Assembly: GCA_024689425.1 (NCBI GenBank)
Contig: JAILDN010000004.1
Coordinates: 12,464-76,463 of the forward strand
DNA length: 64,000 nucleotides
Reading direction: 5' to 3'
Source: Methanobrevibacter sp.
Lineage (GTDB): Archaea; Methanobacteriota; Methanobacteria; Methanobacteriales; Methanobacteriaceae
The notes below the pieces were generated by a model, which was not told where the DNA came from, searched no databases, and saw only the letters and a list, made by a program, of their open reading frames with translations. A program made the position numbers and the translations under genes. Shown here in pieces: positions 10,279 to 13,179 of the stretch (position 1 is its first letter; the number at the start of each line of letters is the position of its first letter).

Positions 10279-10710
10279 ATGAAAGTCGCAATTATTGAAA
10301 CTGATAAAGGAGTAATTGAATTGGAATTATTCCCAAATGAAGCTCCAGGTACTGTAGCTAACTTTGAAAAATTAGCTGACGAAGGATTTTACGATGGATT
10401 AACCTTCCACAGAGTAATACCAAACTTTGTAATTCAAGGAGGATGCCCTAATGGAAATGGAACTGGTGGACCAGGTTACACCATCAAATGTGAAACTGAA
10501 GGAAACCCTCATAAACACGGAACTGGTGCTTTATCTATGGCACATGCTGGTAAAGATACTGGCGGAAGCCAATTCTTCATTACCCACTCCCCACAACCTC
10601 ACTTGGATGGAGTGCACACTGTCTTTGGTCAAGTAATTAAAGGTCAAGACGTGGTCAATGCAATCCAGCAAGGAGACAAAATGAATAAAGTTTACATTGA
10701 AGAAAGATAG
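10279..10710 (+). CDS. Cyclophilin-type peptidyl-prolyl cis-trans isomerase
   Basis: [40 protein letters not shown]. Confidence 0.95.
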
Positions 10711-10900
10711 TTTTTTTGAACCTCTCCGGCTTAAAGAAGCCGGAGATTCTTAGGCCATGCCTATTGTTTCGTCAAAACATTTCCATTCATAATGATATAA
10801 GAATTTGCCTTGACCAATAGGCATGAAATCTACTAAGCATAGCACCGTTGAACCAGCGGCGCGTAGACCTTCGTCTAAAATATTTTTTGCAGCATTAACA
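10696..10900 (-). ncRNA. Predicted TnpB omega/reRNA: tnpB 3' end plus right end, with a flank-derived guide (AAAAACUAUCUUUCUUCAAU); 5' boundary approximate
   Basis: Inferred from established TnpB biology and the TCAA end at 10716; the scaffold was not folded computationally. Confidence 0.5.
10723..10746. repeat. Right-end subterminal hairpin TCTCCGGCTT-AAAG-AAGCCGGAGA
   Basis: Perfect 10-bp stem at the foot of the tnpB stop codon. Confidence 0.9.
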
Positions 10901-12018
10901 TCCCTTTGAAGAATGCTATGGCAGTGCGGACATTCCCACACCCTTTCATCACAATCTAAGTCATGGTTGATTTCTCCACAGACATTGCACTTTTTGCTCG
11001 ATGGAAACCACCGATCGATTTGTATAAATTCACGGCCATACCATTGGGCTTTGTATTTTATCATTTCTATGAGTTTGCCCCATCCAATTTCATGTATGCT
11101 TCTGCTTAAATTGCGGGAACGTATCATTCCTCGGATGTTTAATGTTTCCATGGCTATGAATTCGCAGTGTTTGACTATGTTGTAGGATATTTTATGGTAA
11201 TAATCAAGAACTACGTTGTTTTTCTTGTTTATCCATCGGTGGAGTTTTTTGAGTGTTTTTTTCCAGTTGGATCCATTCTTTTTTTGTCGGGCTATTTTTT
11301 GCTGGTAGTATTGTATTCTTCCGTTTATTCTTTTCAAGTCAGGTTTAGGTATGACTTTGCCATTGGAAAAGGTTAGGAAGTCTGTTAGTCCGACATCTAT
11401 GCCTACATATAATCCAGAGTTCTTGAATTCTTCTCTTGGTTGTATTTTTTCTAGTTCGTAGACTATGCATATGAACCAGCGTCCATTTTCTTTTATGATG
11501 GTGGCTTCCTTGATTTTTCCATCAATGTCTCTTTTATATTTGACTTTGATGTATCCGAGTTTATTTAAGCGGAACAGGTTTTCTTCCCATCTTAAAGTAC
11601 TTTTCATACCTTCTTTGGTAGAATATTCGTTGTTTCTCAATGTAATGGAGATTACGGGATTCTTTTTTAGTGATTTGAAATGTGGACGTCCAGTTCTATT
11701 ATCATAGAATCCGTTGTAGGCTTTTATCAAGCGGTCAGTAGAGGCTTGAAGACATGTGGATTCAGCATTTTTAAGGAATGGTTTTTGTTTTTTAAGGTTT
11801 TTTAATATTTTTTGTGTGTATATGCGATCTACTTCCGATTCTGTGCATATTCCAAGCTTGACTAGGTTTTCACGGTAAATACTTACTTCCAATGTTTTGT
11901 TGAAAACATAACCTGTGGCACGGAAATTGAAATTCAATTCCCCTTCTAAATCCTTATCAGGGAAAAATTCAATTTTATCAGTCAAAATAAAAGTTTTTCC
12001 ACACATAAAAAAACACAC
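10750..12018 (-). CDS. tnpB: TnpB RNA-guided endonuclease (start GTG 12018 or ATG 12006)
   Basis: RuvC-I GIDVG, RuvC-II AMETL, zinc finger SSKKCNVCG..WECPHC, RuvC-III RDVNAAKNI; P.FKS motif. Confidence 0.95.
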   Translation of the reverse strand: MCFFMCGKTFILTDKIEFFPDKDLEGELNFNFRATGYVFNKTLEVSIYRENLVKLGICTESEVDRIYTQKILKNLKKQKPFLKNAESTCLQASTDRLIKAYNGFYDNRTGRPHFKSLKKNPVISITLRNNEYSTKEGMKSTLRWEENLFRLNKLGYIKVKYKRDIDGKIKEATIIKENGRWFICIVYELEKIQPREEFKNSGLYVGIDVGLTDFLTFSNGKVIPKPDLKRINGRIQYYQQKIARQKKNGSNWKKTLKKLHRWINKKNNVVLDYYHKISYNIVKHCEFIAMETLNIRGMIRSRNLSRSIHEIGWGKLIEMIKYKAQWYGREFIQIDRWFPSSKKCNVCGEINHDLDCDERVWECPHCHSILQRDVNAAKNILDEGLRAAGSTVLCLVDFMPIGQGKFLYHYEWKCFDETIGMA

Positions 12019-12122
12019 ACATCCTTTTATTATTATTATTTCATTTTTTTTTATAAGAACATTAAATTAACTACCATTCTTATAAATAAAAATTAATAAG
12101 ATAATATATAAAGAAATTATCC

Positions 12123-12141
12123 AAGAGCATTTGAAAAGTAA
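12123..12141 (-). promoter_or_regulatory. Dispersed 19-bp motif, copy B (18/19), inside the IS upstream of tnpB
   Basis: Minus strand TTACTTTTCAAATGCTCTT, then 10 nt, then TTTATATA. Confidence 0.6.
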
Positions 12142-12193
12142 TATTTAAATAAAAACTAAAAAAAATATTCGAATGTCCTTAAAGTGCAATTCA

Positions 12194-12217
12194 TCTCTGG
12201 CTTAAAGAAGCCAGAGA
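12194..12217. repeat. Left-end subterminal hairpin TCTCTGGCTT-AAAG-AAGCCAGAGA with outer GTGCAA/TTGCAC stem
   Basis: Differs from the right-end hairpin by one compensatory C-G to T-A pair; outer arms at 12184-12189 and 12222-12227. Confidence 0.9.
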
Positions 12218-12348
12218 ATTCTTGCACAACAATGTTAAACTATCCTTATTTTTAATTTAATTAATTATTGTAAAAACCACCTTCTTTTAAAAAAATTTAT
12301 ATAACAATAGTTATATAAGAATAAATACAATTATCATGAGGGTCATCT

Positions 12349-13179
12349 ATGGAATTTATAAGAGAAAGTGAAGTTATTCAATGGAAAAACGGAGAATACA
12401 AAACAATTAAAGAAAATAGTGTAGAGGATGAGTATACATATTTGTTTATTGATTATTTGCCCCCACGTAAATTCTCAACATACCCCAAAGATTTGAAAGA
12501 CTTTGCTATAGGATACTGTCTGGGTGAAGGCTTAATTAAAGATTATTCTGACATTGAATCAATAGAATGTGATGGAACAAATGTTTTGGTTAGCACAAAA
12601 CTTAGCCATGACCCTGAAGAAGATTTGGAGCAGGACGGAATAGTTCAGGAGCGAAAAGGCAATTGTGAACATGCCTGTGTCTGCAGATTGCTTGAATATC
12701 AGGGTGTGAACTCAGATAATGCAGGAGGCATAAGATCAGAACTCAAAAGCATTGAAAAAAATACCTCTGACTTAAAAATAGACGCAACCCAAATTATTAA
12801 AGACATTGAACACCTGACTGATGAAGCAAAAATATGGCAAAAAACCGCAGGAGTCCATGTTGCACAATTGAAATATGAAGACAATACAATCATCCGTGAA
12901 GATGTAAGCAGACACGTTGCAGTAGACAAAGTGATTGGAGCAGCATCAAAAGAAGGATATGACTTTTCCAAATGTTATATTTCATACAGTGGGAGAATGC
13001 CTGCTGATATGCTGATAAAAGTAATCAGAGTTGGAATTCCAATAATTATCTCAAATGCGGCACCGGCATCATCAGGTATTGATGTAGCTAACGCAGGAAA
13101 TATTACCATAATCGGATTTGTCCGAGACAACAGATTTACAGTCTACACATCTCCAGAACGTGTAAACTTGGAAAAATAG
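12349..13179 (+). CDS. fdhD: Formate dehydrogenase accessory sulfurtransferase FdhD
   Basis: TAGVHVA, REDVSRHVAVDKVIG, SGRMPADMLIK, TIIGFVR. Confidence 0.9.
   Translation: MEFIRESEVIQWKNGEYKTIKENSVEDEYTYLFIDYLPPRKFSTYPKDLKDFAIGYCLGEGLIKDYSDIESIECDGTNVLVSTKLSHDPEEDLEQDGIVQERKGNCEHACVCRLLEYQGVNSDNAGGIRSELKSIEKNTSDLKIDATQIIKDIEHLTDEAKIWQKTAGVHVAQLKYEDNTIIREDVSRHVAVDKVIGAASKEGYDFSKCYISYSGRMPADMLIKVIRVGIPIIISNAAPASSGIDVANAGNITIIGFVRDNRFTVYTSPERVNLEK

Follow-up and report, generated by a model that had tools for sequence, protein, structure and literature searches.

A probable tnpB-only IS200/IS605 element with a predicted guide RNA in a Methanobrevibacter chromosome

What separates the cyclophilin gene (10279–10710, plus strand) from fdhD (12349–13179, plus strand) on contig JAILDN010000004.1 of Methanobrevibacter sp., and is it a mobile element that is still equipped to act, a stranded relic, or a gene that now serves its host? 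We addressed this question in a stretch of 64,000 nt of that contig (hereafter the window, to which all coordinates refer). The window is a segment of an archaeal chromosome, and its gene content includes Pus10, RPA, SRP54, IleRS, NrdD, and an HdrA-like protein. A first-pass annotation had described the interval as a complete tnpB-only insertion sequence (IS) with recognizable ends, target motif, and guide, and the sequence features that it named are all present. Our analysis indicates that positions 10716–12234 most probably form an intact, non-autonomous, tnpB-only (IS1341-like) IS200/IS605 element, which carries TnpB together with its omega RNA in a Methanobrevibacter chromosome.

The limits of the element became visible through a strain that lacks it. 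A lookup of the exact cyclophilin protein returned a single contig (L001), in which the gap between cyclophilin and fdhD measures 120 nt, compared with 1638 nt in the window, and the flanks are 99.3% and 99.6% identical to those of the window. This empty allele reads ...GATAGTTTTTTTAAACTATCC... on the plus strand and GGATAGTTTAAAAAAACTATC on the tnpB strand. Its junction, ...GGATAGTTTAA|AAAAACTATC..., is opened in the occupied allele (tnpB strand) to give GGATAGTTTAA-CATTG...GGTTCAA-AAAAACTATC, and comparison of the two alleles revealed no target-site duplication. BLAST of the empty allele against the window placed the breakpoints at 10717/10721 and 12235; taken by itself, L001 leaves a 2-nt register ambiguity at the limits of the element. 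This ambiguity is resolved by sibling copies at other insertion sites, because their right ends stop being conserved exactly after TCAA. In 17 genome copies and further right ends, the sequence is kept through GAGAGGTTCAA and is variable from the next base (A11 C1 G5 T7 at the first position past the end), and contigs from other insertion sites, of RNA as well as DNA, have their breaks at 10715/10716. On the opposite side, TTTAA directly precedes the element in 84 of 86 distinct left flanks, and from position −6 outward these flanks show ~0.2 bits, which corresponds to background composition.

Combining the empty allele, the sibling left flanks, and the sibling right ends defines an element of 10716–12234, with 5'-TTTAA as its transposon-adjacent motif (TAM) and TCAA as its right cleavage site, and these limits are the only set that fits all three sources together. 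They are also the limits first proposed, from the first base after TTTAA to the last A of GGTTCAA, and the TAM named at that time is supported by the flanks and the empty allele alike. The comparison with empty-site alleles that had been recommended thus yielded the proposed junction, TTTAA|flank. Insertion at a fixed pentanucleotide without target duplication is a defining property of IS200/IS605 elements. The two deviating left flanks carry the variants TTTTA and CTTAA. Separately, in one sequencing run (X7), a sibling copy apparently follows TTCAA, the same pentanucleotide as the right-end terminus, at the position that corresponds to 12236 in the window.

Both ends carry a subterminal hairpin on the same strand and lack terminal inverted repeats, which is likewise characteristic of IS200/IS605 elements. 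The hairpins at 10723–10746 (TCTCCGGCTT-AAAG-AAGCCGGAGA) and 12194–12217 (TCTCTGGCTT-AAAG-AAGCCAGAGA) are 24-nt palindromes and direct copies of each other; as had been noted, their 10-bp stems differ by a single compensatory pair (C-G versus T-A). In the 64 kb, there are exactly two occurrences of the 14-nt hairpin core, against an expectation of 0.33 at two or fewer mismatches. Folding as single-stranded DNA (ssDNA), compared with shuffled sequences, gave z = −5.8 for the left end (−15.4 kcal/mol) and z = −6.1 for the right end, and four siblings show a compensatory change from G-C to A-T in the right-end stem. On the minus strand, the left end is arranged as TTTAA|CATTGTTGTGCAA-GAAT-hairpin and the right end as GAAT-CTCCGG...CCGGAG-AGGTTCAA|AAAAAC, with the cleavage-site tetranucleotide TCAA at 10716–10719. 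The earlier description of the right end as GAAT followed by a hairpin is accurate in the order of its parts and needs one amendment: with a 10-bp stem, the T of GAAT is the first base of the stem itself. The left end contains an additional outer stem, GTGCAA/TTGCAC, in which 12222–12227 pairs with 12184–12189, and a GAAT/TGAA internal loop lies between this stem and the inner one.

The 228 nt from the left end to the tnpB ATG are free of any open reading frame (ORF), and the window shows no Y1 transposase signal, in agreement with the tnpB-only assignment. Sibling leaders share a conserved block, ATTACTTTTCAAATGCTCT. In addition, TATA-like boxes (e.g., TTTATATA) are present in the minus-strand leader in the regions 12049–12028 and 12100–12120. 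These boxes and the ATTACTTTTCAAATGCTCT block may represent a tnpB promoter, presumably of the archaeal type, or a regulatory site. A scan for sigma-70 promoters and intrinsic terminators gave no enrichment over shuffles, and such models are not meaningful for an archaeon.

The protein encoded by the element has the features of a guided nuclease. It matches Pfam OrfB_IS605 and Cas12f1-like_TNB, both over their gathering thresholds, and NCBIfam guided_TnpB with 250 bits (cutoff 100; profile positions 6–387 of 389). Its nearest natural relative of solved structure is the TnpB of ISDra2 (8bf8/8exa/8h1j; E=2e-38, residues 68–386 aligned). In the HMMER alignment, D204, E287, and D369 lie opposite chain residues 191, 278, and 361 of ISDra2 TnpB, which we take to be the RuvC catalytic residues of that protein. 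With C340/C343/C359/C362 also present, the RuvC D/E/D triad and both CxxC pairs of the zinc finger are intact by alignment, as first annotated. Comparison with eight full-length sibling genes gave a ratio of non-synonymous to synonymous substitution rates (dN/dS) of 0.12–0.18, which places the TnpB protein under purifying selection.

A structured guide RNA is predicted to overlap the 3' end of tnpB and the right end. In an alignment of the last 240 nt of 13 copies, with 86% mean column identity, RNAalifold predicted 51 pairs; compensatory changes occur in 13 of these, and several of the 13 fall within the coding region. Paired cells amounted to 98.2%, versus 29–42% when the partners were slid by 1–3 columns, and the covariation score was 0.256, versus 0.082 or less in the slid controls; none of 500 shuffles reached 0.256. 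The window sequence alone gave a minimum free energy z-score of −4.9 for this region. Well-supported helices span ~10716–10877, and a weaker, invariant helix could extend the RNA in the 5' direction to 10941. Over the last 70 tnpB codons, the rate of synonymous change (dS) is reduced 2–4 fold relative to the remainder of tnpB, which would be expected where a constrained RNA overlaps a gene. In Rfam, neither a permissive scan of the element nor a gathering-threshold scan of the whole window matched an omega RNA family, the only hit being one tRNA elsewhere. Covariation thus supports the structure, while the transcript and its ends are predictions from the sequence.

The predicted guide, AAAAACUAUCUUUCUUCAAU, directly follows TTTAA in the empty allele, and the proposal that guide and TAM together reproduce the empty allele on the tnpB strand holds. 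In antisense orientation, the guide spans the final four codons of the cyclophilin gene, its stop codon, and 5 nt. A search of the window for TAM plus guide returned a single near match, namely the donor site, in which TTCAA and not TTTAA stands ahead of the guide sequence. Contigs from rumen metatranscriptomes, which derive from siblings of 95–99% identity, extend over tnpB and continue past the right end into foreign flanking DNA. These contigs start near 12019 and none spans 12033–12245, leaving the left end uncovered, which is weak evidence. The coordinates of all features are collected in the table.

Table. Positions of the element, its parts, and its predicted target and guide in the window.
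Feature	Position	Strand	Basis
Whole element, 1519 bp, probable tnpB-only IS200/IS605 type (IS1341-like)	10716..12234	-	empty allele, sibling ends
Target/TAM 5'-TTTAA (tnpB strand), flank DNA outside the element	12235..12239	-	empty allele L001, sibling flanks
Left end: 17-nt 5' segment CATTGTTGTGCAAGAAT, 10-bp hairpin 12194–12217, 6-bp outer stem	12184..12234	-	sequence, DNA fold
AT-rich leader between left end and tnpB start	12007..12183	-	sequence, sibling leaders
tnpB coding sequence, 418 aa and TAA stop, alternative GTG start at 12018	10750..12006	-	Pfam, NCBIfam, structure alignment
RuvC residues D204, E287, D369	11395–11397, 11146–11148, 10900–10902	-	alignment to ISDra2 TnpB
Zinc-finger cysteines C340/C343/C359/C362	10921–10989	-	sequence
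Right end: GAA(T), 10-bp hairpin 10723–10746, GGTTCAA	10716..10749	-	sequence, siblings, DNA fold
Predicted omega (right-end) RNA scaffold, overlaps last ~42 tnpB codons and right end	10716..10877	-	RNAalifold covariation
Flank predicted as guide, AAAAACUAUCUUUCUUCAAU	10696..10715	-	sequence, empty allele

The element belongs to a multi-copy family. The search for sibling copies, which had also been suggested, was carried out in two ways: species-representative genomes scanned on the basis of TnpB yielded 23 loci, each from Methanobrevibacter or Methanobacteriaceae, and metagenomes scanned with a left-end pattern yielded another 75. Methanobrevibacter thaueri SIG17 carries at least five copies, the read depth of the element in one run (X4) is ~5x that of its flanks, and two gut metagenomes contain the occupied allele without a single difference. 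The element was located in sequencing runs of ruminant and other gut metagenomes. Within the window, a tblastn search with TnpB and a search for the hairpin each returned only the element at 10716–12234, and viral contigs contained neither the left-end nor the right-end pattern, giving no sign of a viral carrier.

The insertion point lies directly after a run of seven T behind the cyclophilin stop codon (10711–10717), which is likely an archaeal terminator. Because this run and the 110-nt region upstream of fdhD are left intact, the insertion is probably neutral for both genes.

Several related or derived forms were encountered among the siblings. A distant Methanobacteriaceae family, found in a metagenome-assembled genome (MAG 290, L017–L021), shares ~50% amino-acid identity and has at least four copies at contig ends; its right end shows the same AAGAATCTCC...GGAGAG...GTCAA frame with a far larger hairpin loop. 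At 10 distinct TTTAA sites, all in metagenome loci and none in the window, we found mini-elements of 48–49 nt with a single hairpin (L030:3502-3549, L056, L076, L031, L037, L051, L064, L075, L077, and L085). They join a left-end head, one hairpin, and a right-end tail in the layout TTTAA|C[AT]TTATTGTGCAAGAATTCTCCGGCTTCTACAAGCCGGAGAGGTTCAA|, and three are identical in sequence. Such forms may be products of deletion from one hairpin of a full copy to the other, or else minimal units that are themselves mobile; the literature searched contained no description of the 48–49-nt single-hairpin form. Other siblings are interrupted. In L027 and likewise in L034, the leader harbors a nested reverse-transcriptase gene of a group II intron on the opposite strand, ~100–1800 nt past the left end. 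The insertion point in L027 lies precisely behind the ATTAC of the conserved leader block, ATTAC|TTTTCAAATGCTC, which suggests that the IS leader serves as an intron homing site. In L029, L057, L063, L087, and L094, nested ISs with DDE-type transposase ORFs of 260–500 aa lie between the left end and tnpB or replace tnpB. Siblings without tnpB behind the left end were considered as possible carriers of tnpA and rejected, since their interiors are nested DDE transposases, group II intron reverse transcriptases, or 48-nt mini forms.

What the data show is an element with defined limits and TAM, intact catalytic motifs, and no target duplication, whose protein is under purifying selection, whose RNA structure covaries, and which is present in multiple copies with a polymorphic distribution. 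Around these observations, the following mechanism can be proposed. The element would have inserted as ssDNA 3' of TTTAA between the cyclophilin gene and fdhD, with the observed outcome that no target sequence was duplicated. Its 418-aa TnpB would act as an RNA-guided endonuclease. Transcription of the omega RNA would proceed from the tnpB 3' end across the right-end hairpin and into the flank, the transcript would be processed to putative mature ends, and the first ~16–20 flank bases (AAAAACUAUCUUUCUUCAAU) would probably serve as the guide. The complex of TnpB and omega RNA could then recognize TTTAA followed by the guide sequence, which is the empty allele, and the cut empty allele would recombine with the occupied copy and thereby restore the element. 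A role in homing or retention of this kind is established for ISDra2 and Geobacillus TnpB and may, by analogy, apply here. The occupied site would be spared only since the right end supplies TTCAA and not TTTAA. For movement to new sites, we infer, in line with the first-pass annotation, that TnpA is needed in trans: a Y1 (HUH) enzyme would bind both subterminal hairpins and cleave after TTTAA and after TCAA.

A number of findings weigh against this interpretation. With the TnpA of IS608 (sequence verified against the Protein Data Bank) and of S. tokodaii as queries, tblastn found no TnpA in the window and 99 related loci (595 kb, ~530 kb of it from the loci), with no hit at E<=1, and tnpA was also absent from the ~30 sibling copies with readable interiors. 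Elements of the IS1341-type subgroup normally have no tnpA of their own. No circle or tandem junction between right end and left end was found, and thus no transposition intermediate was seen. The RNA evidence is weak: it consists of assembled sibling contigs only, which carry no strand information and may include DNA. The window copy has 12 private substitutions at positions that are invariant in eight siblings, and two of them (R352C and E356V) lie between the cysteine pairs of the zinc finger; none affects a catalytic or zinc-binding residue. With such substitutions, full activity of this TnpB is not guaranteed. Finally, the donor site is one TAM base away from a perfect target. Self-protection that rests on one TAM base is not self-evident, because the sole characterized archaeal TnpB with a TTTAA TAM has a relaxed TAM.

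Some of these findings would suit a stranded relic, that is, an element that was once mobile, has no TnpA left in these genomes, and whose TnpB and omega RNA persist only by homing or retention, or decay. The lack of tnpA in the window, in ~30 sibling copies, and in 595 kb of related sequence is in keeping with such a history, as are the many siblings that nested ISs or group II introns have disrupted or of which only a single-hairpin remnant of 48 nt is left, and the 12 private substitutions at conserved positions. However, presence and absence are polymorphic between strains whose flanks are 99.3–99.6% identical, the family occupies 86 distinct insertion sites, its ends are perfectly conserved, and dN/dS values of 0.12–0.18 indicate strong purifying selection; moreover, the search for tnpA took in a small fraction of any genome. 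We therefore regard a relic as unlikely. We would give only a slim chance to the idea that the tnpB-only family reached its TTTAA sites in rumen Methanobrevibacter, at least 86 in number, without any cognate Y1 TnpA in the genus. It would then have been mobilized otherwise, by an unrelated HUH enzyme or a transiently acquired TnpA, and the 48-nt units would be mobile minimal substrates and not deletion scars.

Domestication offers another reading of the same locus, in which tnpB would act as a TldR-like RNA-guided regulator, or in another host function at the cyclophilin 3' end or the fdhD promoter, and not as a nuclease. The position of the guide, antisense to the cyclophilin 3' end, would be in keeping with such a role, and TnpB-derived repressors are documented in the literature. 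This is very improbable for an element in which the RuvC D/E/D triad, the zinc finger, and both transposon ends are intact, which is found at dozens of unrelated sites with unrelated guides, and which is absent from this locus in a near-identical strain (L001). TldR in the strict sense, a nuclease-dead TnpB-derived repressor, is ruled out by the intact catalytic residues together with both ends. It is just as hard to credit that the limits are shifted by 1–2 nt, to an element AACATT...GGTTC or ACATT...GGTTCA with the motif (A)GTTT or GTTTA and a guide that starts 1–2 A earlier. Although a single empty allele cannot separate the three registers, owing to the shared TT/AA, right ends are invariant through ...TTCAA in every copy and variable at once thereafter, left flanks are invariant for exactly the five bases TTTAA, and with shifted limits every target would have to begin with A or AA by chance.

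Read as an intact, non-autonomous tnpB-only element, the insertion belongs, as an ordinary representative, to a family that is very large and well understood. Its practical interest is modest, and it leaves the current understanding of TnpB systems unchanged. We found no paper on TnpB, IS605, or IS200 of Methanobrevibacter in the literature searched. The element provides a fully delimited and, as predicted from its sequence, probably active pair of TnpB and omega RNA from a mesophilic, AT-rich methanogen genus. The TTTAA TAM is very frequent in AT-rich genomes such as those of Methanobrevibacter, and the host grows at ~39 °C, unlike the thermophilic archaeon whose TnpB has already been characterized. 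Given this frequent TAM, the growth temperature, and the delimited pair, the element could offer a point of departure for editing tools, native or compact, in rumen methanogens; its value as such a tool, which had been raised from the outset, is speculation. The locus also supplies a clean natural pair of occupied and empty alleles, in which the guide matches the empty allele and a single base, TTCAA versus TTTAA, would protect the occupied site.

Among known systems, ISDra2 of Deinococcus radiodurans resembles the Methanobrevibacter element in several respects. Both share the D/E/D RuvC triad and the CxxC...CxxC zinc finger, the TAM equals the left-end target site in both, and in both the guide RNA, a predicted one here, overlaps the right end as well as the tnpB 3' end and takes its guide from the flank, a likeness of the RNAs by layout only. 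ISDra2 differs in that it is bacterial and has its own tnpA, whereas the element described here resides in a methanogenic archaeon and has none. The TAM of ISDra2 is reportedly TTGAT, compared with TTTAA here.

The mechanistic model for IS200/IS605 ends is IS608 of Helicobacter pylori, in which the left cleavage and target site lies outside the element, 5' of the hairpin, and TCAA lies inside, 3' of the hairpin; each hairpin foot has a guide tetranucleotide on its 5' side, and resealing of the donor is precise (PMC3201880). The Methanobrevibacter element shares with IS608 the subterminal hairpins on the same strand, the outside position of the left site, the inside position of the right TCAA site, and the lack of target duplication (PMC3201880). 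The initial claim of the same layout as IS608 is therefore correct for the order of parts and the TCAA site, though not for the spacing, which from the hairpin foot is 19 nt on the left and 10 nt on the right in IS608, versus 17 and 3 nt here (PMC3201880). Further differences are that IS608 targets TTAC and not TTTAA, that it encodes TnpA, and that the Methanobrevibacter element has an extra 6-bp outer stem at its left end.

An archaeal precedent exists in SisTnpB1 of Sulfolobus islandicus REY15A, a characterized IS200/IS605 TnpB with a 5'-TTTAA TAM that was deduced from the left-end flank, an omega RNA at the 3' end of tnpB, and tolerance of a relaxed TAM (PMC10640517). By description, the two systems are alike in their archaeal TnpB, their TTTAA TAM, and the position of the omega RNA (PMC10640517). 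In S. islandicus, however, TTTAA belongs to elements with both tnpA and tnpB, and solo tnpB elements use TTTAT (PMC10640517). SisTnpB1 is also thermophilic, with an optimum of 75 °C, in contrast to a TnpB from a mesophilic gut methanogen. Finally, the Methanobrevibacter family resembles IS1341-type and palindrome-associated transposable element (PATE)-like elements, with a single orfB/tnpB gene between IS605-type ends, multiple copies, and short non-coding derivatives; it differs from these in that its derivatives are just 48–49 nt long and consist of one hairpin that joins a left-end head to a right-end tail.

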